DNA of 37,175 nucleotides from Clostridiaceae bacterium (GTDB lineage Bacteria > Bacillota > Clostridia > Oscillospirales > Butyricicoccaceae). Every line of letters starts with the position of its first letter. The first letter of the stretch is position 1. The stretch lies in assembly GCA_009911355.1 (NCBI GenBank), contig QXXE01000040.1:1-37175 (forward strand), given 5' to 3'. Under the pieces are notes generated by a model. The model was not told the origin of the DNA. It searched no databases and saw only the letters and a list, made by a program, of their open reading frames with translations. Below, in pieces: positions 206-34,040 of this stretch. The position numbers were made by a program, and so were the translations under genes.

Positions 206-670
206 ATGTTTTTGGTGTTTTTGCTGTTGTGGATCATCCTCAACGGCCGTGTAACTGCGGAGATCCTGATCCTGGGATGCGCTTTCTCCGCCGCGTTCTA
301 CTGGTTCACCCGCAAATACCTCGGAAGGACCGCCGAGGATGAAAAAAAATGGCTCCGCAGCATCCCCCATATGGCCAAGTACCTCGCAGTACTCGTCTAC
401 GAAATCTTTAAAGCCAACTTCGACGTGATCCGCCTCATCCTTTCCCCCAGCACCGAGGTCGAACCACGCCTCGTCCACCTGCGCACCGACCTCAAAACCG
501 ACGGCAAACGCGCCCTCCTCGCCAACTCGATCACCCTGACCCCCGGCACGATCACCGTCCGCCTGAAAGGCCAGCACCTGCAAGTCCACTGCCTCGACTG
601 CTCCCTCGCCGAAGGGCTCGGCGAGTCCAGCTTCGTCCGCCTGCTGCGCGAAATGGAGGATGCCGAATGA
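206..670 (+). CDS. mrpE: Mrp/Mnh cation:proton antiporter subunit E
   Basis: 154 aa. 'LANSITLTPGT' and overall layout match MrpE/MnhE. RBS aagggagg lies 7 nt upstream. Confidence 0.8.
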   Translation: MFLVFLLLWIILNGRVTAEILILGCAFSAAFYWFTRKYLGRTAEDEKKWLRSIPHMAKYLAVLVYEIFKANFDVIRLILSPSTEVEPRLVHLRTDLKTDGKRALLANSITLTPGTITVRLKGQHLQVHCLDCSLAEGLGESSFVRLLREMEDAE

Positions 671-1011
671 GAGCCATTGAACTGAACTTCTTCAACACCC
701 TCGCACTGGCCTGCATGCTCGTGATCTCCGTGCTGTTTATGGCCGCGCTCCTGCGCGCCGTCAAAGGCCCCCGCGTCACCGACCGCCTGGTCGCCGTCAA
801 CATGATCGGCACCATGACCATCGCCATCATCGCCATCCTGGCCGAAGTGCTCGGCGAAGGCGGCCTGGTCGATATCTGCCTCATCTACGCCATGATCAGC
901 TTCCTCGCAATCGTCGTGCTGACCAAGGTCTACATGGGCGTTTACCGCCAACGCCGCATCCGCGAAAAAGCCCAGGAAAAACAAAAGCTCCAAGAGGAGG
1001 GGAAAGCATGA
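667..1011 (+). CDS. mrpF: Mrp/Mnh antiporter subunit F
   Basis: 114 aa with 3 TM helices. 'RVTDRLVAVNMIGT' is typical MnhF. Start overlaps the mrpE stop by 4 nt. Confidence 0.75.
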   Translation: MRAIELNFFNTLALACMLVISVLFMAALLRAVKGPRVTDRLVAVNMIGTMTIAIIAILAEVLGEGGLVDICLIYAMISFLAIVVLTKVYMGVYRQRRIREKAQEKQKLQEEGKA

Positions 1012-1331
1012 TCGCATTTATCCGTACCGCCCTCGCCGCCGCCTGCATCCTGTGCGGCGTCGCCGTGATGCTCATCGCAACCATCGGCGTCAACCGCTTC
1101 CACTACGTCCTCAACCGCATGCACGCCGCCGCCCTCGGTGATACCCTCGGCATCGGCTTCGTGCTCATCGGCCTCATGATCCACAACGGCCTGACCTTCG
1201 TCTCGCTCAAGCTGCTGCTCATCATCATCTTCTTCTGGATGGCAAGCCCCGTCTGCTCCCACCTCATCAGCAACCTTGAAGTGCAGACCAACCCCGACGT
1301 CGAAAAGGAGTGTGAGATCATCCATGAGTGA
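1008..1331 (+). CDS. mrpG: Mrp/Mnh antiporter subunit G
   Basis: 107 aa. MnhG-like 'GVNRFHYVLNRMHAAALGDTLG'. Start overlaps the mrpF stop by 4 nt. Confidence 0.75.
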   Translation: MIAFIRTALAAACILCGVAVMLIATIGVNRFHYVLNRMHAAALGDTLGIGFVLIGLMIHNGLTFVSLKLLLIIIFFWMASPVCSHLISNLEVQTNPDVEKECEIIHE

Positions 1332-1593
1332 CCTGTTTATTTTCCTGCTGCTCGTGTTCCTCATCGTCTGCGCCGTCGCCGCCAGCCTGACCAAAAAGCT
1401 GCTGGCCTCCATCGTCATCTTCATGTCCTATTCGCTGATCATGTCGGTGATCTGGGTGCTGCTGGAATCGCCCGACCTCGCAATTACCGAGGCCGCCGTC
1501 GGTGCGGGCGTGACCAGCCTCCTGTTCTTTACAACACTCAAAAAAATCCACGCAATCGAGGAGGAAATACGCGATGAGCAGGCAGAGAAGTGA
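1324..1593 (+). CDS. small membrane protein resembling the MnhB N-terminal region (DUF4040-like; MbhD-like)
   Basis: 89 aa from an internal ATG. aaaggag lies 12 nt upstream. 'DLAITEAAVGAGVTSLLF' matches the DUF4040 signature. Confidence 0.6.
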   Translation: MSDLFIFLLLVFLIVCAVAASLTKKLLASIVIFMSYSLIMSVIWVLLESPDLAITEAAVGAGVTSLLFFTTLKKIHAIEEEIRDEQAEK

Positions 1594-2524
1594 TTACCCC
1601 GGCAGCCGGTGGGATAAATTCAGCCGCTGGCTGCACGGCGATTATGACCCGTTCGCGGGCAAGCTGGAAATGAAACGCCCGGAGGAATTCCCCTCCCCGC
1701 CGCCGCTCGACTGGAAACAGGTCGACCTGAGCGTCGCCCAGCACGTGGGCGACGACCTCGACCAGGGCAAGCAGTTCCGGCTGTTCCGGAAACTGTACAA
1801 AGCCGCGTCCTGCGTGCTCTGCCTGAGCATTATCGTGATCCTGCTGATTACAGTCGCCAACCTGCCGCCGTTCGGCGACCCCGCGAACCCGGCAAACAAC
1901 GAGGTCTCCGAGCGCTACATCGAAAAGGGCTTACAGGAGACCGGCGCGGTCAATATCGTGACCGGCATGATCCTCGATTACCGCGCCTTTGATACCTTCG
2001 GCGAGTCGACCGTGCTGTTCTGCGCGGCCTGCTGCGTGCTGATCCTGCTGCGGCTGGATGACAGCAAAAAGGCCAAGGCGGAGGAGTTCGACCAGATCTA
2101 CGAGCCGCGCGAGGACACGATCCTCGAACAGGCGGCGCGCATCCTCTTCCCCATGATCATGATGTTCGGCGTATACATCGTACTCAACGGCCACCTGTCG
2201 CCGGGCGGCGGCTTCTCGGGCGGCGCGATCATGGGCGCGGGGCTCATCCTGTACCTGAACGCGTTCGGCTTCCAGAAGACCCAGCGGTTCTTTACCGAAA
2301 AAACCTTCCGCTATGTCTCGCTGGGCGCGCTGATGTTCTACTGCTGCGCGAAAAGCTATTCCTTCTTCACCGGCGCGAACCATCTGCCGAGCGGCATCCC
2401 GCTGGGCACGCCGGGGGCGATTTTATCGAGCGGCCTGATCTTCTACCTCAACATCTGTGTCGGCCTTGTCGTCGCCTGCACGATGTATGCCTTCTTCGTC
2501 ATGTTCCGCAAAGGGGGGTTCTGA
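1574..2524 (+). CDS. MnhB-domain membrane protein (Mrp subunit B-like) with an 85-aa hydrophilic N-terminal extension
   Basis: 316 aa. 'NIVTGMILDYRAFDTFGESTVLF' and 'GHLSPGGGFSGGAIMGAG' are MnhB hallmarks. gaggagg lies 8 nt upstream. Confidence 0.7.
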   Translation: MSRQRSDYPGSRWDKFSRWLHGDYDPFAGKLEMKRPEEFPSPPPLDWKQVDLSVAQHVGDDLDQGKQFRLFRKLYKAASCVLCLSIIVILLITVANLPPFGDPANPANNEVSERYIEKGLQETGAVNIVTGMILDYRAFDTFGESTVLFCAACCVLILLRLDDSKKAKAEEFDQIYEPREDTILEQAARILFPMIMMFGVYIVLNGHLSPGGGFSGGAIMGAGLILYLNAFGFQKTQRFFTEKTFRYVSLGALMFYCCAKSYSFFTGANHLPSGIPLGTPGAILSSGLIFYLNICVGLVVACTMYAFFVMFRKGGF

Positions 2525-2541
2525 CCGCCTTGCGGCCCACT

Positions 2542-2594
2542 CAAAACCTGCGGGTTTTGGCGCTGCGCGCCTCATTCAAAATCTGCGGATTTTG
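2542..2594. promoter_or_regulatory. two tandem 18-bp palindromes, 'caaaacctgcgggttttg' and 'caaaatctgcggattttg', 35 bp apart
   Basis: Both are perfect inverted repeats around a central 'ctgcgg'. They sit in a 300-bp gap inside the mrp operon. Confidence 0.5.
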
Positions 2595-2822
2595 AATGAA
2601 TTGGGGAATAAGGAAGATTTGACTCCGTCGATGCGGGCTTTGCCCGCACGCCGGTCCGGCCTCCGCTCCATGCATCGCGCAAGGCGCGATACACTGCGCT
2701 GCGGCGCAAGGTGAAAAAAGCCACGTGCGGGCCGCGGCTTTTTTCCCGCCGCTTTGCGGCGGTTTGGGATATGCGCCCGCGCCGCGCCCTGCTACAGACT
2801 TTCCACAAAAGGGGGAATCCAA

Positions 2823-3197
2823 GTGCTCGAAAACCTGATTATCAACCACTATGAGACAGCGGCGGTCATCCTGTTCGGCATCGGCTTTACGACCCTGCTG
2901 CTGCATCAGAACCTCATCAAGAAAATTATCGGCATGAATATCATGGACACCGCGGTTTACCTGTTCCTCGCGGCGAAGGGCTTCGTCGTGGGGCGGCTCT
3001 CGCCGATCGTTGTCAACGGCGTGCAGGATATGGAAGCCTACATCAACCCCGTGCCTGCCGGGCTGGTCCTGACCGGCATCGTCGTCTCGGTCAGCGTGAC
3101 CGCGCTCATGCTCTCGCTGAGCCTGTGCCTGTACCGGCGCTACCATTCGCTGGACCTGGACGTCATCTTAATGCGTGTGAAGAAGGAGTGGAGTTAA
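2823..3197 (+). CDS. mrpC: Mrp/Mnh antiporter subunit C (NuoK-like)
   Basis: GTG start after 'aaggggg'. 124 aa with 3 TM helices. 'YINPVPAGLVLTGIVVSVSVTALMLSL' matches MnhC. Confidence 0.7.
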   Translation: MLENLIINHYETAAVILFGIGFTTLLLHQNLIKKIIGMNIMDTAVYLFLAAKGFVVGRLSPIVVNGVQDMEAYINPVPAGLVLTGIVVSVSVTALMLSLSLCLYRRYHSLDLDVILMRVKKEWS

Positions 3198-3198
3198 A

Positions 3199-4701
3199 AT
3201 GCCGTTTGTATGCAATTTCCCCTTCTTTTCCATCGTGCTTTCGATGTTCTGCGGCATCGTTTCCTCGGTGCTGAGCGGCAAAACCGCGAAAAAGCTGAGC
3301 ATCGGCCTGCTGTGCGTCAACCTGGCGCTGAGCGCGTCGGTACTCGCCTACACGCTCGGGACGGGTGAAAGCTACGTATACATGATGGGCCATTTCCCCG
3401 CGCCGTGGGGCAATGAGATCCGCGCGGGCGTGCTCGAAGGGGTGCTCGCGTCCTTCTTCTGCACCATTATGCTGCTTGCGCTCGTCGGCGGCCTGCGCCA
3501 CATCGCGCAGGAGATCGAGCCGACCAAGCAGAACCTCTATTTTATCATGGTCGACCTGCTGCTCGCGTCGCTGCTCGCGCTCATTTACACGAACGACCTG
3601 TTCACCGCTTACGTCTTTGTTGAGATCAACACCATCGCCGCCTGCGGCATGATCATGATCCGGCAGATCGGGCGCAGCTATGTCGCGGCGGCGCGGTACA
3701 TGGTGATGAGCCTGCTGGGCTCGGGCCTGTTCCTCATCAGCCTTGCGACGCTCTACGGCCTGACAGGCCAGCTGCTCATGACCCCCGCGCAGGAGGCCGT
3801 CGCGGCGCTGCGCGAGGCGGGGCGGTATATGGAGCCGCTGACCGTGACCATCGCGCTGATGACCGTCGGCCTTGCCATCAAGAGTGGCCTGTACCCCTTC
3901 CATTCCTGGATGCCGGAAACCTACGGCTACTCGACCGCGTCGTCAAGCGCCATCCTTTCCAGCCTGGTCTCGAAGGGCTACATCATCCTGCTGATTAAAA
4001 TCTTCTACCGCGTCCTCGGCAGCGAGACCATCATGAAGGGCAAGATTTCCAACATCCTGTTTGTCTTCGGCCTTGCGGGCATGATCATGGGCTCGGTGAG
4101 CGCCATCCGCGAGAGCGATATCCGCCGCATGATCGCCTATTCCTCGGTGGCGCAGATCGGCTACATCTACATGGGCCTCGGGCTGGGCACCGAGGCGGGC
4201 GTGATCGCGTCGCTGTTCCACATCCTGTCGCACGCGGCGAGCAAGGGGCTGCTGTTCATCTCGGCGACCGGCCTGTCCGACGTGTCGGGCGGCAGCAAGC
4301 GCTTCCGCGACCTGCGCGGCGCGGGCTACCGCAACCCGGTCGCGGCGGCCGGCTTCACGGTGGGCGCCATGAGCATGGTCGGCCTGCCGCTGTTCGCCGG
4401 CTTCATTTCCAAGCTGCTCTTCGCGACGGCTGGCGTACAGGACCCGACCAAGATGCTCCCGACGATGGTGTGCCTTGCCGTGTCGACGGTACTCAATACG
4501 GTCTACTTCCTGCGCACGGTGCTGACCATCTTCACGCCGGTCGACGTCGACGAGGAGTCCAAAGCCCGCGCGCGCCAGATCACACGGGGCTTTTCGCTCA
4601 AGCTTTCGGTGCTGTGCTTTATCGCGCTGAACCTGATGCTCGGCCTGTATTCCGACCCGATTGTCGCGGCGCTGGAATCCGGGCTGCGCATGTTCTCGTA
4701 A
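3199..4701 (+). CDS. mrpD: antiporter-like subunit, MrpD/NuoN family (Proton_antipo_M)
   Basis: 500 aa, about 14 TM helices. 'YPFHSWMPETYG' and 'IAYSSVAQIGYI' match Complex-I antiporter-subunit motifs. Confidence 0.8.
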   Translation: MPFVCNFPFFSIVLSMFCGIVSSVLSGKTAKKLSIGLLCVNLALSASVLAYTLGTGESYVYMMGHFPAPWGNEIRAGVLEGVLASFFCTIMLLALVGGLRHIAQEIEPTKQNLYFIMVDLLLASLLALIYTNDLFTAYVFVEINTIAACGMIMIRQIGRSYVAAARYMVMSLLGSGLFLISLATLYGLTGQLLMTPAQEAVAALREAGRYMEPLTVTIALMTVGLAIKSGLYPFHSWMPETYGYSTASSSAILSSLVSKGYIILLIKIFYRVLGSETIMKGKISNILFVFGLAGMIMGSVSAIRESDIRRMIAYSSVAQIGYIYMGLGLGTEAGVIASLFHILSHAASKGLLFISATGLSDVSGGSKRFRDLRGAGYRNPVAAAGFTVGAMSMVGLPLFAGFISKLLFATAGVQDPTKMLPTMVCLAVSTVLNTVYFLRTVLTIFTPVDVDEESKARARQITRGFSLKLSVLCFIALNLMLGLYSDPIVAALESGLRMFS

Positions 4702-4713
4702 AGGAGGGGGAAA

Positions 4714-6156
4714 ATGGAAACCATACTTGTCCCGGTGCTGCTGGGGGCGGTGCTGCTGGCGGTGAAGCCGCTGCGCGAGGGCGCGGGCGGGCGGGCAGCG
4801 TTTGTGACGCTCTCGCTGCTGCTCCAATGCGCGCTGGCGGTGCGCGCGGCCATGTCCCCGCAGGCGGCGCGTTCCCTGCATCTGACGGAGGACGTGCTGC
4901 TGCTGCTCCAGCCGGACGGGCTGTCCGGCGTGTTTCTTGTGATGACCGCGGTGCTGTGGGCGCTTGCGGGCGTGTTCTCGTTTGGCTATCTCAAAAACGA
5001 CCGGCGTGCGGGCGTGTTCTTTGGCGTATACCTCATCGTGTACGGCACGATGGCGGGCGTCGCGCAGTCGGGCAACCTCATCACGGTCTATCTGTTTTAT
5101 GAAATGCTCACCCTGACCTCGTCGCTGCTGGTGTTCTACGAGGGCACCCATGAAGCCATTATGGCGGGGCTCAAATACCTGTTTTACTCGGTTGCGGGCG
5201 CGTTCCTTGCGCTGGCCGGCATCTTCATGCTCTCGCGCATGAACGAGTGGCTGATCTTCACCCCGGGCGGTGTGGCGCTGGATTACCAGGCCAACGGCGG
5301 GACCGGCACGGTGCTGGCCGCAGTCTTCCTCATGGTGCTGGGGCTGGGTGCGAAGGCGGGCATGTACCCGCTGCACGGTTGGCTGCCGACGGCCCACCCG
5401 GTTGCGCCGGCCCCGGCGAGCGCGGTACTCTCCGGCCTGATTGTCAAGGCGGGCGTGTTCTTTTCCATCCGGGTGGTGTATTACATCGTCGGCGCGGGCA
5501 GGCTGCGCGGCACGTGGGTGCAGTATGCGTGGCTGACGCTGGCGCTTGTGACGGTGTTCATGGGCTCCATGCTGGCGTATATGGAGCCGGTGCTGAAAAA
5601 GCGCCTCGCCTATTCGACGGTCAGCCAGGTGTCGTATATCCTGTTCGGGCTGGCGCTGCTCACGCCGGGCGGCTTTACCGGCGGGCTGCTGCACATGGTG
5701 TTCCATGCGGTCACCAAGTGCGGGCTGTTCCTCGCGGCGGGCGCTCTGATCAAGCAGACCGGCTGCACAAGGGTTTCCGAGCTTGCGGGCGTGGGCCGCG
5801 CGATGCCGGTCACGGCCGGATGCTTCGCGGTGTTCGCGCTGTCGCTGGTCGGCATCCCGCCGTTTTCGGGCTTTGTGAGCAAGTGGTACCTCGCGACCGG
5901 CGTCGAGGGCGCGGGCGTTGGGCTGTTTGCCCTCATCGGGCCCGCGGTGCTGCTCGTCAGCGCGCTGCTGACGGCGGGCTACCTGTTCCCGCTGCCGGTG
6001 CGCGGGTTCTTCGCCCCGGCAAAGGCGGGCGTGAAGGAAGCGCCCGCGGTGATGGCGCTGCCGCTTGTGGTGCTGGCGGCGCTGGCGCTGGGGCTTGGGC
6101 TGTTTGCGCAGCCGCTGCTGGCCTGCCTGGCGGAGATCGCCGGGACGGTCCTGTAA
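4714..6156 (+). CDS. antiporter-like subunit, MrpD/NuoM family (paralogue 2)
   Basis: 480 aa. 'YPLHGWLPTAHPVAPAPASAVLSG' and 'AYSTVSQVSYI'. RBS 'taaaggaggggg'. Confidence 0.8.
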   Translation: METILVPVLLGAVLLAVKPLREGAGGRAAFVTLSLLLQCALAVRAAMSPQAARSLHLTEDVLLLLQPDGLSGVFLVMTAVLWALAGVFSFGYLKNDRRAGVFFGVYLIVYGTMAGVAQSGNLITVYLFYEMLTLTSSLLVFYEGTHEAIMAGLKYLFYSVAGAFLALAGIFMLSRMNEWLIFTPGGVALDYQANGGTGTVLAAVFLMVLGLGAKAGMYPLHGWLPTAHPVAPAPASAVLSGLIVKAGVFFSIRVVYYIVGAGRLRGTWVQYAWLTLALVTVFMGSMLAYMEPVLKKRLAYSTVSQVSYILFGLALLTPGGFTGGLLHMVFHAVTKCGLFLAAGALIKQTGCTRVSELAGVGRAMPVTAGCFAVFALSLVGIPPFSGFVSKWYLATGVEGAGVGLFALIGPAVLLVSALLTAGYLFPLPVRGFFAPAKAGVKEAPAVMALPLVVLAALALGLGLFAQPLLACLAEIAGTVL

Positions 6157-6168
6157 GGAGGGGGAAAT

Positions 6169-7638
6169 ATGAATCCGATATTTTTGATTGTCCCCATCCT
6201 GCTGCCGCTGGCGGCGGCGGTATGGCTGCGGCTGGCGCGCCCGGAGGGCCGGGCCATGCAGGTGGGGCTCATGGCGGCGGTGCTGGTGAATTCGGCGCTT
6301 GTTTGGGCGCTGCTGCTCAACCGCCCGGCGGATGGGCTGGAGCTGTTCCGGTTTACGCAGGGCCTTTCGGTCACGCTGCGGCTGGACGGCATGGGCTCGG
6401 TGTTCGCGGGGCTGGTTTCGGCGCTGTGGCCCCTCGCCACGCTGTATACCTACGCTTATATGGAGCATGACAGGCGCGTGGGCGTGTTCCTGACCTGCTA
6501 TACGCTGACTTATTCGGTGACGCTCGGCATTGCCTTTGCGGGCAACCTGCTGACGCTGTACCTGTTTTACGAGCTGCTGACGCTGGCGACCGTGCCGCTG
6601 GTCATGCACGACCTTACGCCGGAGGCGCTGCGTGCCGCGCGCAAGTACCTGTATTATTCGCTGGGCGGCGCGGCGTTCGCGTTCATGGGCATCGTGTTCC
6701 TCGCGTATTATGGCGCGACGCTGGATTTTACAGGCTATGCGGCGGCGGTCAACAGCGGCATGATGCTGTCGCACCGCGATATGATGACGGTTGTGTATGT
6801 GCTGACCTTCTTTGGGTTCAGCGTCAAGGCGGCAATGTTCCCGTTCCACGGCTGGCTGCCGACGGCCTCGGTTGCGCCGACCCCGGTGACCGCGCTGCTG
6901 CACGCGGTGGCGGTTGTCAAATCGGGCGCGTTTGCGATCCTGCGCGTGACTTATTTCAGCTATGGCACGGTGTTCCTGGCCGGGACCGCCGCGCAGAAGG
7001 CCGTCATGGCGGCGGCGATGGTGACCGTTGTGTTTGCGTCGACGATGGCGGTCAAGGCGGTGCATTTCAAACGGCGGCTGGCCTATTCGACGGCGTCCAA
7101 CCTGTCGTATATCCTGCTGGCGGCGTCTGTGATGACCGGGCTGGGGCTCGAGGCGGCGCTTGCGCATATGGTGTTCCACGCGGTGATGAAGTGCTGCGCG
7201 TTCTTCTGCGCGGGCGCGGTGATGCACCAGGCTGACAGGCATTATATTTATGAGCTGGACGGCATCGGGCGCAAAATGCCGGTGGTGTTCACCTGCTTTA
7301 CGGTAGCGTCGCTGTCGCTGGCGGGCATCCCGCCGCTGTGTGGGTTCCTCAGCAAGTGGTCGATTGCCAAGGCGCTGCTCACCATGCCGGACACGCTGCT
7401 CGGCTGGCTGGGGCTTGCGAGCCTGATGTACGCGGCGTTCATGTCGGCGGTCTATATGCTGACGGTGGTTGTCCGTGCGTTCCAGCCGCTCCCGGCAGGG
7501 CAGCTGGAGGGCGTGCATGACCCGGGCTGGAAGATGATCCTGCCGATCGGGCTGTTGGCGGCGGCGGTGGTTGTGCTGGGCTTCTGCTCGCAGCCGCTGT
7601 TCGGGCTGTTCGGCAGGATTGCCGCCGGGACGCTGTAA
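6169..7638 (+). CDS. antiporter-like subunit, MrpD/NuoM family (paralogue 3)
   Basis: 489 aa. 'FPFHGWLPTASVAPTPVTALLHA' and 'AYSTASNLSYI'. Its upstream RBS 'taaggaggggg' is nearly identical to that of the 4714 gene. Confidence 0.8.
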   Translation: MNPIFLIVPILLPLAAAVWLRLARPEGRAMQVGLMAAVLVNSALVWALLLNRPADGLELFRFTQGLSVTLRLDGMGSVFAGLVSALWPLATLYTYAYMEHDRRVGVFLTCYTLTYSVTLGIAFAGNLLTLYLFYELLTLATVPLVMHDLTPEALRAARKYLYYSLGGAAFAFMGIVFLAYYGATLDFTGYAAAVNSGMMLSHRDMMTVVYVLTFFGFSVKAAMFPFHGWLPTASVAPTPVTALLHAVAVVKSGAFAILRVTYFSYGTVFLAGTAAQKAVMAAAMVTVVFASTMAVKAVHFKRRLAYSTASNLSYILLAASVMTGLGLEAALAHMVFHAVMKCCAFFCAGAVMHQADRHYIYELDGIGRKMPVVFTCFTVASLSLAGIPPLCGFLSKWSIAKALLTMPDTLLGWLGLASLMYAAFMSAVYMLTVVVRAFQPLPAGQLEGVHDPGWKMILPIGLLAAAVVVLGFCSQPLFGLFGRIAAGTL

Positions 7639-7650
7639 GGAGGGCTGGAG

Positions 7651-9693
7651 ATGAATCTGATACCTTGGATCCTGCTGGTGCCGCTTGGCGGCGCGGCCTG
7701 TGCTGCGCTGTGCGGGAGAAAATATGGCAAAACGGCGGATTATATTGCGCTGGCGGCAGAGCTGGCGGCGCTGGCGCTGGCGGCGGCCCCGCTTCTTCTG
7801 GCGGGCTGCGGGCTGGATGCGTGTGAGCTGGGGCTTGTGGGCTGCGGGCTGCGGTTTGCCGGGGACGGCTTCCGGCAGCTTTGGGCGGTGCTGATCTGCT
7901 TTGCGTTTACGATGAGCGGGCTCATGTGCCCGGAGTACCTTGCGCACAGCCATGCGCGCGCGCGTTACCAGGCGGCGACGCTGCTGGCGCTGGCGGGGAC
8001 GCTCGGCGTGTTCCTCTCGGCCGACCTGTTTACCTTTTTTGTCTGCTTTGAGCTGATGAGCCTGTCGTCGTGGCTGTGGGTGCTCCACGAGGAGACCCCG
8101 GGTGCGAAATACGCCGCCGGCACCTATTTAGGTGTGGCGGTGCTCGGCGGTCTGGTGCTGCTGATGGGGCTGTTCACGCTGAATCTGCTGGGCTGCCCGA
8201 TGGATTTCCTTGACATCCGGTTCCTGTGGGATTACGGCGCGGCCCCGCGGGGGCTGCTGTATCTGGCGGGGGGGCTGATGCTGTTCGGCTTTGCCGCAAA
8301 GGCGGGGGTCTTCCCGCTGCATTTCTGGATGCCGCTGGCGTATCCTGCGGCGCCTGCGCCCGCGAGCGCGCTGCTTTCTGGCGTGCTGAGCAAATGCGGC
8401 GTGCTGGGGATGCTGCTGCTTTCGGCGACGCTGTTCCGGTGGGACTTCCGCTGGGGCGAGGTCGTGCTCGCGCTGGGGGTTGTGACGATGCTGCTGGGGG
8501 CGGTGCTGGCGCTGTGCTCGGTGGATCTCAAGCGGGTGCTGGCGTACTCGTCGGCGTCGCAGATCGGGTTTATCACGGTCGGCGTGGGGCTGATGAGCCT
8601 GCTCGGGCTGGAGGACGTGTTAGCCGTACGCGGTACGGTTCTTCATATGATGAACCATACGCTGATTAAGCTGGTGCTGTTCCTGGCGGCGGGCGTGTTT
8701 GCGATGAACTGGGGGACGCTCGATCTGAACAAGCTGCGCGGGGCGGGGAGGGGCAACCTCCCGCTGATGCTGGTGTTCCTGACAGGGGCGTACGCGGTAG
8801 CGGGCGTGCCGGGGGGCAGCGGGTATCTGAGCAAGACCATGCTGCATGAAGCGGTTGTGGAGTATACGGAGCTGGCGCGGGAATCGGGCATGCATATTGT
8901 GACGCAGCTGAAGGTTGTGGAGTGGCTGTTCCTGATTTCGGGCGGGCTGACGCTGGCGTATATGCTGAAGCTGTTCATCACGCTGTTTCTTGAGCGCCCG
9001 GAAGGGAAAACAACGGGGAAAGCGCTCCGCATGGGGCCGCTGACGGCGGCGGCGCTGGTCATCCCGTCGGCGGTGCTGTGGGTGCTGGGGCTGCTGCCGC
9101 ACCAGGTTACCGATCCGCTGCTTGACATGTCGCAGGGGATGCTGACAGATGCGCGGTTGGAACACCGGCTGCAATATTTCTCGGGTACGAACCTGAGCGG
9201 CGCGTGCATTTCGCTGGCGATCGGCGTGCTTGTATATTTGGTTGTTGTGCGGAAGCTCCTAATGCGGGACGGGGGGCACCGGAATGTGGTCCCTGCGTGG
9301 TGCGACTTGGAGCGGAACGTATACCGTCCGGTGCTTCTGCGGCTGCTGCCGAACCTGTTCGGCTTGCTGAGCCGTCTGGTGGACTGTTCTCTTGACGGCG
9401 CGATCGTACTGCTGCGCAAGACGCTGCTGGTGAGCTTGGGCAAACCGAAGCGCGAGGTTGCGGGTGTGAAGGCGACGGACACGCTGGGGCGTTTCTGTGA
9501 CAGGGTACACTGGCTTTTAAACCACACGGTACGCCGCAAAAACCCGAAGGAGCACCGTTCTTACGTTTACACTTTTGCAGAGAAGGAGCGCGAGGCGGTG
9601 GCGGCGGGGCGGCTGATTACGGCAAGCTTGTCCTTTGGGCTGCTACTGGCTTGTGTCGGCCTGGTCGCGACGCTGGCGTATCTTCTGCTCTGA
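7651..9693 (+). CDS. NuoL/MrpA-like antiporter subunit with a 200-aa C-terminal extension
   Basis: 680 aa. 'FPLHFWMPLAYPAAPAPASALLSG' and 'AYSSASQIGFI'. The C-terminal extension is amphipathic and ends in a final TM helix. Confidence 0.75.
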   Translation: MNLIPWILLVPLGGAACAALCGRKYGKTADYIALAAELAALALAAAPLLLAGCGLDACELGLVGCGLRFAGDGFRQLWAVLICFAFTMSGLMCPEYLAHSHARARYQAATLLALAGTLGVFLSADLFTFFVCFELMSLSSWLWVLHEETPGAKYAAGTYLGVAVLGGLVLLMGLFTLNLLGCPMDFLDIRFLWDYGAAPRGLLYLAGGLMLFGFAAKAGVFPLHFWMPLAYPAAPAPASALLSGVLSKCGVLGMLLLSATLFRWDFRWGEVVLALGVVTMLLGAVLALCSVDLKRVLAYSSASQIGFITVGVGLMSLLGLEDVLAVRGTVLHMMNHTLIKLVLFLAAGVFAMNWGTLDLNKLRGAGRGNLPLMLVFLTGAYAVAGVPGGSGYLSKTMLHEAVVEYTELARESGMHIVTQLKVVEWLFLISGGLTLAYMLKLFITLFLERPEGKTTGKALRMGPLTAAALVIPSAVLWVLGLLPHQVTDPLLDMSQGMLTDARLEHRLQYFSGTNLSGACISLAIGVLVYLVVVRKLLMRDGGHRNVVPAWCDLERNVYRPVLLRLLPNLFGLLSRLVDCSLDGAIVLLRKTLLVSLGKPKREVAGVKATDTLGRFCDRVHWLLNHTVRRKNPKEHRSYVYTFAEKEREAVAAGRLITASLSFGLLLACVGLVATLAYLLL

Positions 9694-9704
9694 TGCCTTT
9701 CCGT

Positions 9705-9930
9705 GTCCTCGCCGGACGGGCCGCCTGCGCGGCGGGCGGCAGGGCTCTGCCCTGCACCCGCTGGGGCTTCCGCCCCAGACCCCCGAGATGCTTGCGCATC
9801 TCCCCCTCGCCTGCGGGCGGGACGGGGGATGGGCTTACCCTTACCGCTCACCGGCCAGCCCGCCAGAACGGCGGCGGGCTGGCCGGTAAAGATGGACGAA
9901 CCCGGTTATTTGTGATTGCCAACAGGTGGG
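9705..9930. repeat. long-form GC-rich repeat element (no terminal terminator module)
   Basis: Shares 'gcgcggcgggcggcagggctctgccctgcacccgctggggctt', 'gagatgc..gcatctc', 'cgcctgcgggcgggacggg' and 'cagcccgccagaacggcggcgggctgg' with the copies at 23135 and 33645. Confidence 0.75.
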
Positions 9931-9945: not shown

Positions 9946-9988
9946 AGGGGTGTAGGCAAACCGCGCCGGAAAGAAAATGGGGGCTATT

Positions 9989-10624
9989 ATGATGTTCAAG
10001 GTTTATGTGTATGTTCTGGATACCCTGGCAGACTGGGAACTGGGGTATGTTACAGCGGAATTAAATTCCAGGCGCTTTTTTAAAAAAGATGCGCCAGGGG
10101 TATCCGTCAAAACGGTCGGTATTTCAAAGGAGCCGCTCAAAACCATGGGTGGGCTGAGCATCGTCCCCGATTGCGTTCTTGACGAGCTTGCGGTGGACGG
10201 GGAAAGCGTTCTGCTGCTGCCGGGAGCAAATACCTGGGATCGTCCCGAACATGGCGCAATCATCCAAAAAGCAGGCGAATTCCTTTCCGCAGGTGCTGTG
10301 GTATGCGCCATCTGCGGCGCAACTGCTGCGCTGGCCAATGCTGGGCTGCTGGATAACAGGATGCACACCAGCAATGGGGTAGGTTATCTTGAAATGGTTT
10401 CGCCCGGCTACAAGGGGCAGGATTTCTATGTTGACCAGCCGTCTGCCGCAGATCACAACCTGATTACAGCAGGCTCTGCCGGGGCCCTGCTGTGGGCAAA
10501 GCAGATTATTGAACGGCTGAACGTTTTTCAGCCCGATACATTAGAAGCGTGGTATGCATATTTCAGCACGGGCGAAGCCCAGCATTTCTTTGCACTCATG
10601 CAGACGTTATCCGCAGGCCAATAA
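9989..10624 (+). CDS. DJ-1/PfpI family (class-I glutamine amidotransferase-like) protein
   Basis: 'VLLLPGANTWDRPEH' and the nucleophile-elbow-like 'AICGATAALANAGLL'. Start placed at the ATG after 'tggggg'. Confidence 0.65.
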   Translation: MMFKVYVYVLDTLADWELGYVTAELNSRRFFKKDAPGVSVKTVGISKEPLKTMGGLSIVPDCVLDELAVDGESVLLLPGANTWDRPEHGAIIQKAGEFLSAGAVVCAICGATAALANAGLLDNRMHTSNGVGYLEMVSPGYKGQDFYVDQPSAADHNLITAGSAGALLWAKQIIERLNVFQPDTLEAWYAYFSTGEAQHFFALMQTLSAGQ

Positions 10625-11574: not shown

Positions 11575-12468
11575 ATGGCATATCGGACAGACCTTGCGGT
11601 CGAAGCATTGGACTTTGACGAGGGCAAGAAGGCGGCAAAGGCCCTGCGCGGCTTTTCCCGCACGCAGGAGGAAAGCGAAGGGTTTTCAGTGACCCGGCTG
11701 GTCATCCACACGGACGAGGTCGCGCAGGCGCTCGAAAAACCCAAGGGCACGTATGCAACGCTCGATCTCGGCGCGCTCATCCGCCGCGAGGAGGACGCGT
11801 TCCCCCGCGCCTGCCACGCGCTCGCCGGCCTTCTGCGGGAGCTGCTCGCGGGCAGCGGGGACGGTGCGGTCCTGGTTGTCGGCCTCGGCAACCGCTCGAT
11901 CACCCCTGACGCGGTCGGCCCCATTGCCGCCGGGCATGTGATCGCTACCCGGCATCTCGTCTCCCACGTCCCCGAGCATTTCGCGGGCTGGCGCGCCGTG
12001 TCGGCAGTTGCGCCCGGCGTGCTCGGGCAGACCGGCGTTGAGACCGGCGAGCTGCTGCACGGCCTGCGCGACGCGGTCAAGCCTGCGGCGGTGATTGCTG
12101 TCGACGCGCTCGCGACCGGGCGGCTGTCCAACCTGATGCGCACCATACAGGTCACCAATACGGGCATCAACCCGGGCTCCGGGGTCGGCAACGCCCGCGG
12201 CGAGCTGTCCGGGAAAACGCTCGGCGTGCCGGTTGTCGCGGTGGGCGTGCCGACGGTTGTCGACGGCGCAACCATCGCGCACGAAATCTGCACACAGGCA
12301 GGGGTAACTGGCTGTGAAGCGTTGGACGACCTCGCCCAGCCGGTGCTGGTGACCACCCGAGACATCGACCGCGAAGTCAGCGACGTTGCGCGGGTGATTG
12401 GTTATGCGGTCAACCTGGCGCTGCATCCGCACCTTACCGTGGAGGACGTTGACCTGTACCTGTCCTGA
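11575..12468 (+). CDS. gpr: germination protease (GPR endopeptidase)
   Basis: 'YRTDLAVEA', 'VVGLGNRSITPDAVGP', 'TRHL', 'QVTNTGINPGSGVGN' and 'LGVPVVAVGVPTVVD' align with Bacillus GPR. aaaggagg lies 7 nt upstream. Confidence 0.85.
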   Translation: MAYRTDLAVEALDFDEGKKAAKALRGFSRTQEESEGFSVTRLVIHTDEVAQALEKPKGTYATLDLGALIRREEDAFPRACHALAGLLRELLAGSGDGAVLVVGLGNRSITPDAVGPIAAGHVIATRHLVSHVPEHFAGWRAVSAVAPGVLGQTGVETGELLHGLRDAVKPAAVIAVDALATGRLSNLMRTIQVTNTGINPGSGVGNARGELSGKTLGVPVVAVGVPTVVDGATIAHEICTQAGVTGCEALDDLAQPVLVTTRDIDREVSDVARVIGYAVNLALHPHLTVEDVDLYLS

Positions 12469-12469
12469 C

Positions 12470-12600
12470 GCCGGGCTGCCGCGGCGGGCAGGACGGGGGC
12501 TTGCCCTCGCCGGGCGGGCGTCCTGCGCGGACAGCGCCAAAGGGGCTTGCCCTTTTGGAAACCCGTTCTCCGCTGCGGCGGGGGACAGGCGCGCCGCGAT
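12470..12600. repeat. short-form GC-rich repeat with palindrome 'ccaaaggggcttgcccttttgg'
   Basis: Family core followed by 'ctgcggcggggga'. Lies between gpr and spoIIP. Confidence 0.7.
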
Positions 12601-12758
12601 TGCGAATACAGAACCATTTGCAGTGCTTCCTTCATAGCGGCATCCCGTCCGCTGGACAGAAATCACAGCGCATGTCATACCCGCCCGCTTTCCCACATAA
12701 GATAGAAACAACAGCCGCCCACGGCGGTATGAAATGCAGGAAAGGCAGGCGGTGCAGC

Positions 12759-13823
12759 ATGAAGAAACGACCCGTCCGGAGGCGCGGAAACCCGATTGCG
12801 CTGCCCGCGTTCTTATGTATCATGCTTGCGGTGCTGCTGCTGGGGCTGCACTGCCTGGGCGGCGAACCGGCCTTCGAGGCCCTTCTGACCCGCCTTGCAA
12901 CCAACGAGGGCTTTGTGTCGGGCGCGCTTGCGCTTGAGCTTGGCGCAGGCGGCCGCCCGGTGGTACATACCCCGGCCACGGCTGGCAGCGGGCTTTCCCA
13001 GCCGCCGGAACCGGACAAGGCTCCCGCGCCCCCCGAGCCCGCGAACGAAAGCGCATTTGCCGCGCCGGAAATTCCCGCGGGCGCGTTTTCGGAAAAAGCC
13101 GCTACGGTAGAGGTCTCCGGCACGACGGGGCTCAGCTTTGACGTAGAGGAGATGCTTGCAAACCCGCTTGAGCTGCGCAAAACCGACGGCCCGCAGGTAT
13201 TGATCGTACACACCCACGGTACGGAAGCCTATACGAACGACGAAAATTACAGCTACACCTCCGAAGAAAACTTCCGCACGACCGATACCCAATACAACGT
13301 TGTAGCGGTAGGCGACCGCCTGACCGAAGTGCTTGAAAGCCACGGCATCCAGACCATCCATTGCCGGAGCATGTTCGACCACCCGTCCTACAACGGTTCA
13401 TATGGGCGCTCGCTGGAAGAGATCAAGGCGCAGCTTGACGCGAACCCGTCCATACAGGTCGTAATCGACCTGCACCGCGACGATATTTCGCTGGAAGGAG
13501 GCGGCAAGATGTCGCTTGACTGGGAGCAGGACGGCGAGGAGTACGCCCGTATGATGTTCGTGATCGGCAGCGGCGAAAGCGGCCTTACCCACGAAAACTG
13601 GGAGCAGAACCTCAACTGGGCGGTCAACCTGCAAGCGAAGCTGGACGCGGCCTACCCCGGCCTGATGCGCGCGGTCAACCTGCGCAAGCAGCGCTTCAAC
13701 CAGCACCTGCGGCCCGGTTCCATGATCATCGAATGCGGCGCGTCGGGCAATACGCTGACGCAGGCGCTGCGCTCCATTGAGCTGTTTGGGGGCTTCCTGG
13801 CCGCCGAACTGAACGCCGCCTGA
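12759..13823 (+). CDS. spoIIP: stage II sporulation protein P
   Basis: 'VLIVHTHGTEAY', 'VVIDLHRD' and 'NQHLRPGSMIIECG' are SpoIIP motifs. N-terminal basic segment plus TM helix. Start could instead be 12729. Confidence 0.8.
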   Translation: MKKRPVRRRGNPIALPAFLCIMLAVLLLGLHCLGGEPAFEALLTRLATNEGFVSGALALELGAGGRPVVHTPATAGSGLSQPPEPDKAPAPPEPANESAFAAPEIPAGAFSEKAATVEVSGTTGLSFDVEEMLANPLELRKTDGPQVLIVHTHGTEAYTNDENYSYTSEENFRTTDTQYNVVAVGDRLTEVLESHGIQTIHCRSMFDHPSYNGSYGRSLEEIKAQLDANPSIQVVIDLHRDDISLEGGGKMSLDWEQDGEEYARMMFVIGSGESGLTHENWEQNLNWAVNLQAKLDAAYPGLMRAVNLRKQRFNQHLRPGSMIIECGASGNTLTQALRSIELFGGFLAAELNAA

Positions 13824-14652: not shown

Positions 14653-15972
14653 ATGGCTAGAAAAAAGAAGGCCGAAAAAGAAGCGCCGAAGAGTATCTTT
14701 GAAAATAAGGAATTTTTCCTCGCCCTCGACCAGCTCGAAAAGGTCAAGGGCATCCCGGTCGACTACATGCTCGACCGCGTCGGCCAGGCGCTTATCACCG
14801 CATACAAGCGCGAGAACGACGGCATGACCGACAACATCTACGTCGTCCCCGACCGCGAACAAAACACCATCCGCATGTTTGTCCGCAAGACGGTTGTGGA
14901 CGACGTCTACGAGCCCTACGAGGAGCTCTCCCTCGAGGAAGCCCGCGAATATAAACCCGGCGCGATGCTCGGCGACATCATCGACATCGACGTGCCCACC
15001 CGCTCCTTCAGCCGCATCGCCGCCCAGACCGCAAAACAGGTCATCATCCAGGGCATCCGCGAAGCCGAGCGCGGCATGGTGCTCTCCGAATTCGAGTCCA
15101 AGGAGCACGAGATCCTGACCGCCCTTGTTTCCCGCATCGACCCGCGCTCGGGCAGCATCATCCTCGAAATGGTCTCACAGGGCGAAAAGACCGAAGCCGT
15201 CCTCACCCCCAGCGAGCAGGTTGCCGGCGAGCGCTACGAGGAAGGCGACCACGTCAAGGTCTACGTGATCGAGGTGCGCAAGGGCACCCGCGGCCCGCAG
15301 GTCATGATCTCCCGCACCCACCCCGGCCTGGTCAAGCGGCTATTTGAGCTGGAAGTCCCTGAAATCCACGACGGCACCGTCGAAGTCAAGTCCATCGCCC
15401 GCGAAGCAGGCAACCGCACCAAGATCGCGGTCTGCTCGACCGACGCGAACGTCGACCCGATTGGCGCGTGCGTGGGCACCCGCGGCGCGCGCGTTGGCAA
15501 CATCGTCAACGAGCTGGGCGGCGAAAAGATCGACATCATCAAGTGGTCGGAGGATACCGCGGCGTTCGTTTCGGCGGCGCTCGCCCCGGCCGACGTGGTT
15601 TCGGCGACCGTCCTGCCTGACGGCAAAAGCTGCCGCGTGATCGTCCCCGACGACCAGCTGAGCCTTGCCATCGGCAAGGAGGGCCAGAACGCCCGCCTTG
15701 CGGCGAAGCTGACCGGCTGCAAGATTGATATTGCGCCCGCCTCGCAGGCCGATTCCCTCCCGCCCATCCCCGAGCCGGAGCCCGAGCCTGAACCTGAGGA
15801 AATGCTGGAAGACGGTGCGGAAGCGGCAGAGCTTACAGAAGCGGAGGAAGCGCCTGAAGCCGGGCTGAACACCGGTGCGGCGCTGCCGGAAGCCACCGGA
15901 ACTGCGGAGCCTGAGGAAGCCGCACAAAGCGACGATGAGGACGCTGCGCAGGCGCCTTCCGAAACCGACTGA
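14653..15972 (+). CDS. nusA: transcription termination/antitermination factor NusA
   Basis: 'NKEFFLALDQLEKVKGIP', S1/KH regions and an acidic PEPEPEPE tail. aggagtg RBS. Confidence 0.85.
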   Translation: MARKKKAEKEAPKSIFENKEFFLALDQLEKVKGIPVDYMLDRVGQALITAYKRENDGMTDNIYVVPDREQNTIRMFVRKTVVDDVYEPYEELSLEEAREYKPGAMLGDIIDIDVPTRSFSRIAAQTAKQVIIQGIREAERGMVLSEFESKEHEILTALVSRIDPRSGSIILEMVSQGEKTEAVLTPSEQVAGERYEEGDHVKVYVIEVRKGTRGPQVMISRTHPGLVKRLFELEVPEIHDGTVEVKSIAREAGNRTKIAVCSTDANVDPIGACVGTRGARVGNIVNELGGEKIDIIKWSEDTAAFVSAALAPADVVSATVLPDGKSCRVIVPDDQLSLAIGKEGQNARLAAKLTGCKIDIAPASQADSLPPIPEPEPEPEPEEMLEDGAEAAELTEAEEAPEAGLNTGAALPEATGTAEPEEAAQSDDEDAAQAPSETD

Positions 15973-19458: not shown

Positions 19459-19500
19459 ACAGGGCGGCGCCGATGCCCGCCCTGTTTCCCTTCCTTCTTT
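19459..19500 (+). terminator. infB terminator hairpin 'acagggcgg-9nt-ccgccctgt' followed by a T-rich tract
   Basis: 9-bp GC stem immediately 3' of the infB stop. Confidence 0.55.
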
Positions 19501-19615
19501 CCGCCGCCTCCGCCAGGGGCGCTGCCCCTGGACCCCGCGCCTGCGCGGCGGGCGCCAAAGGGACTTGTCCCTTTGGAATCCCTTTCTCCGCCTGCGGGCG
19601 GGACGGGGGCTGTGC
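19500..19615. repeat. short-form repeat ('gccaaagggacttgtccctttggaatccctttctccgcctgcgggcgggacggggg')
   Basis: Family core palindrome plus the 'cgcctgcgggcgggacggg' box. Confidence 0.7.
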
Positions 19616-19755
19616 CTGCGGATTGACAGATATGGTTGCCCAAACCCGCTCATGAATTGGTGTAAAAATGGCAAACTATACGCGAACATTTTATTGATTT
19701 ACCCAACCGCTTTTTGCGTAGATGAAGTAGTTATATTCGCAATCACTGCGCACGC

Positions 19756-19890
19756 ATTCCCCGCCGCAGCGGATCATGGGTTTCCAAAGGGACGAGTCCC
19801 TTTGGCGCCCGCCGCGTAGGCGCGGGGGTGCAGGGGGCAGAGCCACCTGCCGCCCTGTCCGCGGAGGACATCCCGCGATAGCGGGACGTG
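19756..19890. repeat. short-form repeat, inverted orientation ('ttccaaagggacgagtccctttggcgcccgccgcgtaggcgcggggg')
   Basis: Inverted copy of the family core. Confidence 0.7.
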
Positions 19891-23132: not shown

Positions 23133-23134
23133 CT

Positions 23135-23445
23135 GCTGGTTCGCCTCCGCAGCGGGCGGCGGGGCTCTGCCCCTGCACCCCGCGCCTGCGCGGCGGGCGG
23201 CAGGGCTCTGCCCTGCACCCGCTGGGGTTTCACCCCAGGCCCCGAGATGCTGCCGCATCTCTCCTCGCCTGCGGGCGGGACGGGGGCTTGGGTGTTCTTC
23301 CCATCCTTCATGCGCTATGACACAGCCCGCCAGAACGGCAGCGGGCTGGTCGGTGTAGGCGCTAATTGGTGGGCGCCCGCTTACTGCTCTCCCGCACAAA
23401 AAGCCGCTGGCATGATGACACCAGCGGCTTTTCTTTGCTTCTGTT
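23135..23445. repeat. long-form GC-rich repeat element, the most complete copy, ending in a terminator module
   Basis: Modules in order: 'gcgcggcgggcggcagggctctgccctgcaccc'; 'gagatgctgccgcatctc'; 'cgcctgcgggcgggacggg'; 'cagcccgccagaacggcagcgggctgg'; 'gtcggtgtagg..aattggtgg'; terminator hairpin. Confidence 0.8.
23396..23445. terminator. bidirectional terminator 'aaaagccgctggcatgatgacaccagcggctttt'
   Basis: 10-bp stem flanked by A- and T-tracts. Terminal module of the 23135 repeat. Confidence 0.65.
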
Positions 23446-23619
23446 CAGTTTTTTGGCTGCGGCTTTGCAGTTTATCTGCATCGTGGGGCTGCCTGTGCGG
23501 CGCTGGTGTTGTTAGCCGCAGATGGTTTTCTGCAAGGGGTTCTTTGTGGGTTTTGGGGGGGGGGGGACGGTTCGGTATGGCAGTGCCCGCGCCGTACAGA
23601 CGCGCCCTGCGCCCGGTTT

Positions 23620-24510: not shown

Positions 24511-24690
24511 GTCCGTCTGCGCGGGGGCGGCAGGGCGCCGCCCTGCACCCGGCCCTCCGCGGGCAGCGCCAAAGGGGCTGGCCCCTTTGGAATCCCTTCC
24601 ATCGCCTGCGGGCGGGACGAGGGGGCGGTGGATGCGCGGGGGGAGTCTGGCTGCTGCCAGTTCCGGCCTCCCCTTTACAGACAGGCTTTC
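24511..24690. repeat. short/medium-form repeat ('cgccaaaggggctggcccctttggaatcccttccatcgcctgcgggcgggacgagggggc')
   Basis: Family core. Lies between the divergent SDR and DUF4317-like genes. Confidence 0.7.
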
Positions 24691-24748: not shown

Positions 24749-24797
24749 ACTATAGAAAAACACGCTTACCGGGTGCATGCTCGGGGAAAGGGACATC

Positions 24798-33641: not shown

Positions 33642-33644
33642 CTG

Positions 33645-33935: not shown

Positions 33936-34040
33936 CTCTTAGTTTTTTATTTCTCCTGCCCGGCAAAATAACCTTACGTTTTCACCCATCTGCACATTTT
34001 TTATGGGTGAAGAGTACGCGTTTTCGGTAATAGCGCACCT

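Follow-up and report, generated by a model that had tools for sequence, protein, structure and literature searches.

Ten genes at positions 206–9693 on the forward strand of contig QXXE01000040.1 (Clostridiaceae bacterium, assembly GCA_009911355.1; the 37,175-nucleotide stretch analysed here is called the window) probably encode, as judged from their sequences, a single stand-alone Mrp-type (CPA3) cation/proton antiporter without a redox partner and with a "split-MrpA, EFG-first" architecture. The genes are intact and tightly packed, and Pfam and NCBIfam assign them the order E-F-G-MbhD-MbhE/B-C-D1-D2-D3-L. Homologues of all seven subunits, MrpA to MrpG, are present, with MrpA split three ways in the operon into L (its N-terminal part), MbhD, and an MbhE that is fused to MrpB. 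The cluster lacks the Group 1 or Group 2 order with its two antiporter-like subunits and belongs with the heterogeneous "Group 3" (PMC5703873). An earlier note on this DNA had described a Mrp-type operon with the order E-F-G-(DUF4040)-B-C-D seen in Mbh/Mbx membrane modules. The domain assignments bear out the Mrp type, and the order matches that of MBH and MBS, to which the closest solved small subunits also belong (MbsA/B/D/E/G or MbhB). The features of the operon are as follows.

206–670, + strand: mrpE homologue, 154 amino acids (aa); Pfam MNHE, 2.7e-33; best solved match MbsA
667–1011, + strand: mrpF homologue, 114 aa; Pfam MrpF_PhaF
1008–1331, + strand: mrpG homologue, 107 aa; Pfam PhaG_MnhG_YufB
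1324–1593, + strand: MbhD/DUF4040 subunit, 89 aa from ATG; Pfam MbhD, 4.2e-19
1574–2524, + strand: fused MbhE + MrpB, 316 aa; Pfam MbhE (residues 105–160) and MnhB (183–305)
2525–2822, no strand: hairpin-rich intergenic spacer within the operon, 298 bp, non-coding, between MbhE/B and C
2823–3197, + strand: mrpC/NuoK homologue, 124 aa, GTG start; Pfam Oxidored_q2
3199–4701, + strand: antiporter-like subunit D1, 500 aa; Proton_antipo_M, 2e-52; MrpD/NuoN/MbsH type
4714–6156, + strand: antiporter-like subunit D2, 480 aa; Proton_antipo_M, 1.1e-54; "middle" type
6169–7638, + strand: antiporter-like subunit D3, 489 aa; Proton_antipo_M, 9.9e-52; "middle" type, paralogue of D2
7651–9693, + strand: terminal antiporter-like subunit L, 680 aa; Proton_antipo_M; extension of transmembrane helix (TM) 15, lateral helix and TM16

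The MbhD/DUF4040 subunit, the counterpart of the C-terminal TM17–19 of MrpA, finds its best solved matches in MbsD and MbhD. The fused protein best matches MbsE, in which both parts likewise lie in a single chain, and the mrpC product best matches MbsG (1.3e-19). Across D1, D2, D3, and L the Proton_antipo_M E-values span 1e-42 to 1e-54; the top NCBIfam match of L is hydrogenase-4 subunit B. The true starts of MbhD (ATG 1324) and C (GTG 2823) lie downstream of the longest open reading frame (ORF) starts, and the ORF list is misleading in stretching C upstream to TTG 2754; the 89-aa and 124-aa calls agree with the gene calls on other contigs of the same organism (L001).

Consecutive genes overlap or are separated by 1–12 nt, with the exception of the spacer at 2525–2822. 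This spacer is lineage-specific: in most of the 67 other species compared below, the C stop codon follows about 376 nt after the B stop codon and there is no spacer. Its length differs among strains through duplication of a "ctcattcaaaaYctgcggRttttg" hairpin, and neither a terminator (promoter/terminator scan) nor an Rfam match was found within it.

Distribution and genomic setting of the operon

Among the candidates examined, 3098 relatives of the 680-aa L protein were recovered at E ≤ 1e-10; the best 120 are 43–100% identical to it, and nearly all have lengths of 630–760 aa. A pattern scan of one genome per species (GTDB) gave at least 600 matches; 591 of the 600 listed proved to be relatives, and the best 80 loci were taken from these. 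The 67 of these with sufficient upstream DNA were analysed by assigning each ORF to its best-matching window protein, and all 67 informative species loci carry the identical ten-gene order with one orthologue each of D1, D2, D3, and L. Adding contig L001 of the window organism to these loci gives the 68 sequence sets used for all conservation counts below; the MbhE-MrpB fusion occurs in every one of them. Most carriers belong to the Lachnospiraceae, and they include Blautia, Coprococcus catus, C. intestinihominis, Roseburia, Marvinbryantia, Acetatifactor, Butyricicoccus, and Faecousia. The earlier note had taken the arrangement for an unusual one; with all 67 loci sharing it, the order is instead common in these Clostridia, where the four-pump operon is the usual form across a wide group of gut species and no isolated curiosity. 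Genome pipelines give its proteins the generic names "complex I subunit 5 family protein" or "sodium:proton antiporter".

Two contigs of metagenome-assembled genomes labelled Bacteroides (L020 and L064) also carry the clostridial operon, at 44–48% identity to the window L, probably through mis-binning or mislabelling. An apparent variant with disrupted D1–D3 genes, on metagenome scaffold L003 of the same organism, was rejected as its breaks are N-filled scaffold gaps (12420–12429, 13122–13131, 15666–15741, 17247–17256, and 19499–19508).

Searching for the exact MrpE protein showed 20 contigs to carry the operon; six of them, from the same organism, were inspected with 10 kb of flank. Upstream of mrpE these contigs have about 820 bp of intergenic DNA and then purA (adenylosuccinate synthase) on the opposite strand; beyond purA lie pyruvate:ferredoxin oxidoreductase (PFOR, 2.5 kb upstream), a GntR regulator, and a ferredoxin-like gene. 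Downstream, the next gene (9977–10624) is a DJ-1/PfpI homologue, and the 27 kb that follow the operon hold, besides this gene, SpoIIP, a nusA-infB-nrnA-truB-ribF block, an SDR gene, a DUF4317 protein, acetate kinase, and a Band-7 protein. No hydrogenase, NuoB/C/D/H-like, MbhM, or ferredoxin-binding gene was found in the 10 kb upstream or the 27 kb downstream, and NuoA, NuoH, NuoJ, and Q and N modules are absent from the cluster and its flanks. The operon therefore starts at mrpE and stands alone in this organism. The earlier note, which had seen no hydrogenase, Nqo, or electron-input gene after the operon and a DJ-1 homologue next, is thus supported by the 27 kb downstream. Its reservation that a catalytic module might precede mrpE beyond the window edge falls away: the six same-organism contigs show the opposite-strand purA followed by PFOR and GntR genes, and neither NuoB/D nor hydrogenase genes.

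Neither a NuoH-like anchor (MbhM/MbsM) nor NuoB/C/D/I-like redox subunits occur in the window, in the 10 kb upstream, or in the flanks of the 67 related loci. Clustering of the flanking ORFs revealed no conserved neighbour among these loci; the commonest, a methyltransferase-like gene, is present at 12 of the 67, and nothing resembles a redox partner.

Four antiporter-like subunits and the lateral helix of L

All four large subunits retain the residues of the proton channels. The TM5 Glu, the TM7 Lys, the second His and the Lys of TM11, and the TM12 Lys are invariant in D1, D2, D3, and L. The TM8 Lys never varies in D1, D2, or L, and D3 keeps it in 61 of 68 sets. In D1 the invariant residues are E142, K228, K259, H341, H345, K349, and K405; in D2, E130, K214, K245, H331, K335, and K390, with the first TM11 His (H327) present in 67 of 68 sets; in D3, E135, K220, H333, H337, K341, and K396, with K251 in 61 of 68; and in L, E134, K217, H224, K248, H332, H336, K340, and K395. 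The count of four antiporter-like subunits given in the earlier note therefore holds, with all four intact and their channel residues kept. The possibility it raised that two of the D-like genes are pseudogenes was checked and rejected, given intact ORFs and channel residues that are essentially invariant across the 68 sets.

D2 and D3 are 40% identical, and the other pairs of large subunits share 24–33% identity. The near-identical "gtaaggaggggg" spacers from which the earlier note argued for a tandem duplication are real. Each of them consists of a TAA stop codon and a GGAGG Shine-Dalgarno sequence, and purine-rich G-runs also stand ahead of mrpE (aagggagg, with its GGAGG ribosome-binding site) and mrpC (aaaggggg). 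As a stop codon plus a ribosome-binding site, the shared spacers are uninformative on duplication. A recent duplication is ruled out by the 40% identity of D2 and D3 and by their separate deep clades; the duplication is old.

Against solved structures in the PDB, D1 ranks MbsH above MbhH, MbsH', MrpD, and NuoN, in that order; D2 ranks MbhH above MrpD and then MbsH'; D3 ranks MbhH above MrpA and then NdhF/NuoL; and L ranks MbhH above MrpD and then MrpA. We placed the four proteins in a neighbour-joining tree built from Kimura distances, in which the maximum attainable support is 88, shallow nodes are reliable, and deep nodes are weak. The references were E. coli NuoL/M/N and HyfB/D/F, S. aureus Mnh1, P. 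aeruginosa Mrp, the rhizobial "green" complex I, the Peptoclostridium acidaminophilum cluster, and the Haloterrigena plasmid cluster; the four-pump family was sampled with five species, labelled Lachnospiraceae, Butyricicoccus, Faecousia, and Erysipelotrichaceae. Three types emerge. The proximal type comprises D1 and Peptoclostridium D1, loosely placed near NuoN and MrpD. The middle type unites D2, D3, Peptoclostridium D2, Haloterrigena D2, and MrpD1 of the green complex I (support 81 of a maximum 88), and the terminal type joins L to Peptoclostridium L (79 of 88), with Haloterrigena D3 and MrpD2 of the green complex I attached weakly (21 of 88). Since the D2 clade and the D3 clade each hold all five sampled species, the middle subunit was duplicated before these lineages split, or before the operon spread among them. 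The three MrpD-like plus one MrpA/NuoL-like subunits proposed in the earlier note are roughly right: the number four stands and D1 is MrpD/NuoN/MbsH-like, but D2 and D3 form a separate "middle" clade. A further locus, L090 (6007–13211), with about 40% identity over about 380 residues, links the Mrp middle and terminal types to the green complex I variant.

The assignment of L as MrpA/NuoL-like holds for its fold, which is of the MrpA-N/NuoL type, but by sequence its core ranks MbhH and MrpD first. An AlphaFold2 model of L (45 homologues; mean pLDDT 86.7) displays a 14-helix core followed by TM15 (residues 512–537), helices at 553–591, 607–626, and 638–659, and TM16 (662–679). At full length, the best Foldseek match is B. 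pseudofirmus MrpA (7qru_A), followed by NuoL. The helix layout and these matches together indicate an MrpA-N/NuoL-type subunit with a clamp of TM15, lateral helix, and TM16.

According to published work, the antiporter-like subunits are tied to one another by the lateral helix HL, which is as long as their number requires (PMC7684303, PMC8165549); in complex I variants an extra subunit is accompanied by a 26-residue insertion, according to the part of PMC9040806 that cites Chadwick 2018. Measured on hydrophobicity, the gap between TM15 and TM16 is 36–41 residues in two-pump MrpA, 77–97 in the three-pump NuoL, HyfB, Peptoclostridium L, and Haloterrigena D3, and 114 in L; it is 83 residues in MrpD2 of the green complex I, which comes from a four-pump complex. 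The stretch of L that follows the conserved (D/G)LE..Y.P anchor, up to the C-terminal end, measures 128 residues (family median 130, range 120–155) compared to 101 in Peptoclostridium L, and the excess over the latter falls in one alignment block of 27 residues. The same distance in other three-pump clusters is 95 (Tepidibacter), 102 (C. cochlearium), 121 (C. estertheticum), 127 (Wukongibacter), and 141 (Clostridium sp. MB40-C1). The three-pump tails of 121–141 residues thus overlap the four-pump range of 120–155, and tail length does not predict pump number in this clade.

The cation module and the weighing of alternatives

The small subunits keep most of the residues described at the cation entry and the coupling hub, with a few replacements that are fixed or nearly so. 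Positions corresponding to MbsD E58, MbsG E37 (Asp here), MbsB D30/R31, MbsC R35, MbsA H139, MrpE P114, and MrpG P86 are all retained. In the mrpE product, Pro113 (NSITLTPGT motif) and His128 (equivalent to MbsA H139) are invariant, as are the PDxAxTEAAVG motif of MbhD, whose Glu is MbsD E58, and Asp42 of the mrpC product, which aligns with MbsG E37 and MbhG D37. In the mrpG product, R37 is invariant, and H39 (H42g) and P81 (P86g) are 94% and 95% conserved.

The mrpF product, aligned to MbhB, MbsB, and three MrpF structures, keeps the D39/R40 pair and has Asn45 where all five structures have Asp. Asn45, found in 68 of 68 sets, aligns with A. flavithermus D35f and with MbsB D36; D35f has been described as "invariably conserved" and on the Na+ path (Steiner and Sazanov, PMC7419157), and MbsB D36 is described in PMC8165549. 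MrpG carries the motif R-F-H-Y-V-L-N-R in place of the R-x-P-D-x-x-x-R of the solved structures, which holds MbsC D31, and the position of the "PD" Asp is Tyr or Phe33 in 65 of 68 sets. Six residues past H42g, a new Asp45 (a Thr48-to-Asp change) is invariant. MrpF Asn and MrpG Asp occur together in the 68 four-pump sets, in five clostridial three-pump clusters, and in the Peptoclostridium and Haloterrigena clusters, whereas MrpF has Asp in the S. aureus Mnh1, P. aeruginosa, Streptomyces, Sphingobium, Tateyamaria, and Niallia clusters and in the five solved structures. The extra MrpG Asp is absent from the five structures and from the four of six canonical clusters in which a G motif is recognisable. 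The occurrence of Asn in clostridial and haloarchaeal EFG-first clusters means that the published Asp is not invariant. The alignments look like a clade-wide relocation of a carboxylate from MrpF to MrpG, in which the charge has moved rather than been lost; only the four-pump family has in addition given up the MrpG "PD" Asp.

By analogy with solved Mrp, MBH, and MBS structures, E, F, G, MbhE/B, and MbhD would form a Na+ or K+ path at one end of the complex, with MbhD, C, and the first helices of MbhE/B serving as a coupling hub beside D1. D1, D2, D3, and L would then provide a row of four proton channels, which the C-terminal lateral helix and last TM helix of L would reach back to clamp. Inward proton flow through the four channels, driven by the proton-motive force, would expel one cation through the small-subunit module, with an H+/cation ratio above that of two-channel Mrp. 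Such a ratio would make cation extrusion, or cytoplasmic acidification and proton capture, feasible at the low proton-motive force and low membrane potential of fermentative gut anaerobes. The four-in-row complex is proposed from the conservation of the operon and from the solved homologues; like the stoichiometry and the ion specificity, the presence of all four large subunits in one complex is something we infer, and a longer membrane arm would be expected with it.

Several observations weigh against this reading. The lateral-helix length of L is no proof of four subunits in a row, as three-pump tails are equally long. Two acidic residues of the published Na+ path are replaced, with Asn standing for MrpF Asp35 and Tyr or Phe for the MrpG "PD" Asp, and Na+ specificity therefore cannot be assumed. 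The 298-bp hairpin-rich spacer splits the operon in this lineage, where two transcripts could be made. Finally, no paper describing this four-pump Mrp family was found in the literature searched, nor anything relevant on a stand-alone Mrp with three MrpD-like genes and an MrpA-like gene or on Mrp in Lachnospiraceae.

One alternative is that the Mrp core is real and its four large subunits do not all sit together, with D2 and D3 acting as alternative middle isoforms, or D2-D3-L as a separate module, so that the working complex has three pumps. The closest relatives do have three large subunits, some of those clusters match L in the length of the lateral-helix region, and D2 and D3 are both paralogous to a single middle subunit. 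Against this, both genes are kept in 67 of 67 species, in clades of their own and with conserved channel residues, which would be unexpected of redundant isoforms; gene order is fixed, with the tight packing of translationally linked genes; and D3 has fixed, family-specific differences, His at L-S243 and Asn at L-Q304, that suggest a distinct position. We consider a three-pump assembly unlikely. The replaced acidic residues raise the different question of whether a Mrp-like machine with a rebuilt cation path might move something other than Na+, such as K+ or Ca2+, or might carry protons alone and regulate pH, driven by the voltage. Asn at the MrpF Asp35 position (PMC7419157) in every set, Tyr or Phe at the MrpG "PD" position in 65 of 68, and the new invariant MrpG Asp45 would fit such a change, and K+- or Ca2+-specific Mrp systems are on record (PMC5703873). 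Asn can still ligate Na+, however, and it is always paired with the new MrpG Asp in TM2, in what looks like charge relocation, with the remaining entry and hub residues conserved; a non-Na+ substrate seems to us very unlikely.

The gene order itself, and the MBH/MBS affinity of the small subunits, would also suit the membrane arm of a redox-driven pump (MBH/MBS/FHL or complex-I type) whose catalytic module is encoded elsewhere in the genome, and the hydrogenase-4 subunit B match of L and the PFOR gene 2.5 kb upstream in this organism point the same way. Yet the cluster has neither a NuoH/MbhM-type anchor nor MbhI, no neighbour is conserved across the 67 species, and the PFOR gene stands behind the oppositely oriented purA and is not conserved beside the cluster. 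In all known members of that redox-driven superfamily, the membrane genes share an operon with those for the anchor and the redox subunits (PMC7684303, PMC8165549), and we regard a detached catalytic module as highly improbable. The stand-alone four-pump antiporter remains the preferred reading. A bolder version of it, to which we give little credence, would make the family a natural four-pump Mrp with a rebuilt cation site (its carboxylate shifted out of MrpF into MrpG, with loss of the entry Asp of MrpG), with an H+/cation ratio of about four or more or a different coupling ion, working as the main proton-sodium gradient converter of these fermenters and not in stress only. If true, this would be a direct demonstration of pump-number tuning without a redox module.

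Other features of the window and comparison with known systems

The window gave no Rfam match at gathering thresholds, and the promoter/terminator scan did not rise above shuffled expectation. The non-coding DNA at 1–205 is built from GC-rich palindromic repeat units, and such units are found again between many other genes of the window. CCAAAGGGGCTAGCCCCTTTGG, CGCCTGCGGGCGGG, and GCAGGGCTCTGCCCTGC are examples; the units occur in both orientations and in chains, are REP/BIME-like, and have no Rfam match. Besides 1–205, they fill regions at 9694–9890, 12516–12608, 19516–19867, 23134–23453, 24519–24641, 30643–30899, and 33630–34151. Towards its C-terminal end, the DUF4317 ORF (24777–26321) holds four tandem copies of a 39-nt unit at 26095–26289, which are 69–86% identical when compared in overlapping 78-nt windows and whose translation is a repetitive tail rich in Ala, Glu, and Pro.

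The membrane arms of complex I, MBH, and MBS are regarded as descendants of Mrp, and how the channels are coupled to one another and to the cation site is debated. The redox enzymes of the superfamily have one to five pumps, a variation that has been discussed. For stand-alone Mrp, two pumps are the norm in the structural and review literature consulted, which mentions a few irregular clusters. The operon described here is a widespread, uncharacterised four-pump variant of a known antiporter, with a split MrpA and a rebuilt cation entry, and it leaves the basic picture of Mrp unchanged. Its moderate interest lies in being a natural test case for pump number and for the Na+ site in the Mrp/complex I superfamily: a four-pump Mrp conserved in dozens to hundreds of species of gut Clostridia, including the cultured Coprococcus catus, offers a redox-free system for asking whether H+/Na+ stoichiometry scales with pump number, and the Asn in place of MrpF Asp35 with its compensating MrpG Asp provides an immediate way to test the Na+ path that has been proposed. 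The operon may also have a bearing on the sodium, pH, and bile tolerance of abundant gut commensals.

Canonical Mrp/Mnh/Pha/Sha systems (CPA3; Group 1 mrpABCDEFG, Group 2 mrpA'CDEFG; 6Z16, 7QRU, 7D3U) share with the window operon the same seven families, the stand-alone state without a redox module, and a terminal subunit with an MrpA-N fold and lateral helix. They also share the proton-path residues of the large subunits, the MrpE Pro, the MrpG Pro and His, the MrpF Asp-Arg pair, and the hub Glu/Asp. The window operon differs in being EFG-first, with MrpA split into three genes, MbhE fused to MrpB, and L at the 3' end; in having four large subunits compared to two; and in the change of MrpF Asp35 to Asn, the loss of the MrpG "PD" Asp, and the gain of MrpG Asp45.

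The closest likeness is to stand-alone three-pump relatives in Peptoclostridium, Tepidibacter, three Clostridium species, Wukongibacter, and a Haloterrigena plasmid. These EFG-first clusters have the order E-F-G-MbhD-MbhE-B-C-D-D-L, the same proximal, middle, and terminal types, and the same MrpF Asn and MrpG Asp. The window family adds a second middle subunit (D2 and D3) and the loss of the MrpG "PD" Asp, and its MbhE and MrpB are always fused, whereas in the three-pump relatives they are separate or fused. It also lacks the sigma-54 activator upstream. In four of five three-pump contig clusters (Tepidibacter, two Clostridium, and Wukongibacter), a sigma-54 enhancer-binding protein with MimR_N, PAS/GAF, Sigma54_activat, and HTH_8 domains lies directly upstream of mrpE in the same orientation (L094, 2353–4350; L096, 2342–4330; L097, 2266–4266; L098, 2394–4376), which suggests regulated expression of these clusters. 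Ito et al. 2017 (PMC5703873) had already noted irregular "Group 3" and "markedly different" anaerobe clusters, with examples that carry two mrpD genes.

Pyrococcus furiosus MBH and MBS (6CFW, 6U8Y) have an identical order of the Mrp-like module, A(E)-B(F)-C(G)-D-E-F(B)-G(C)-H(D), and it is there that E, F, MbhD, MbhE/B, and C find their closest sequences, while G is closer to Mrp structures. In MBS, MbsE holds MbhE and MbhF in one chain, like the fusion in the window, and D1 is closest to MbsH. The window cluster differs from both in lacking the MbhM/MbsM anchor and the J/K/L/N redox subunits and in having four large subunits rather than one or two; MBH and MBS keep the Asp at the MrpF position. 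The extra-pump variants of complex I, namely Nitrospira 2M, the rhizobial "green" type, and the five-pump Ca. Manganitrophus enzyme (Chadwick et al. 2018, as given in the parts of PMC7419157 and PMC9040806 that treat them), follow the same principle of adding pumps by duplication of antiporter-like subunits. They are redox-driven, with NuoA–K and Q modules, of which the window operon has none. Steiner and Sazanov (PMC7419157) count one to three, and recently four, antiporter-like subunits per complex, with the four found in complex I homologues.

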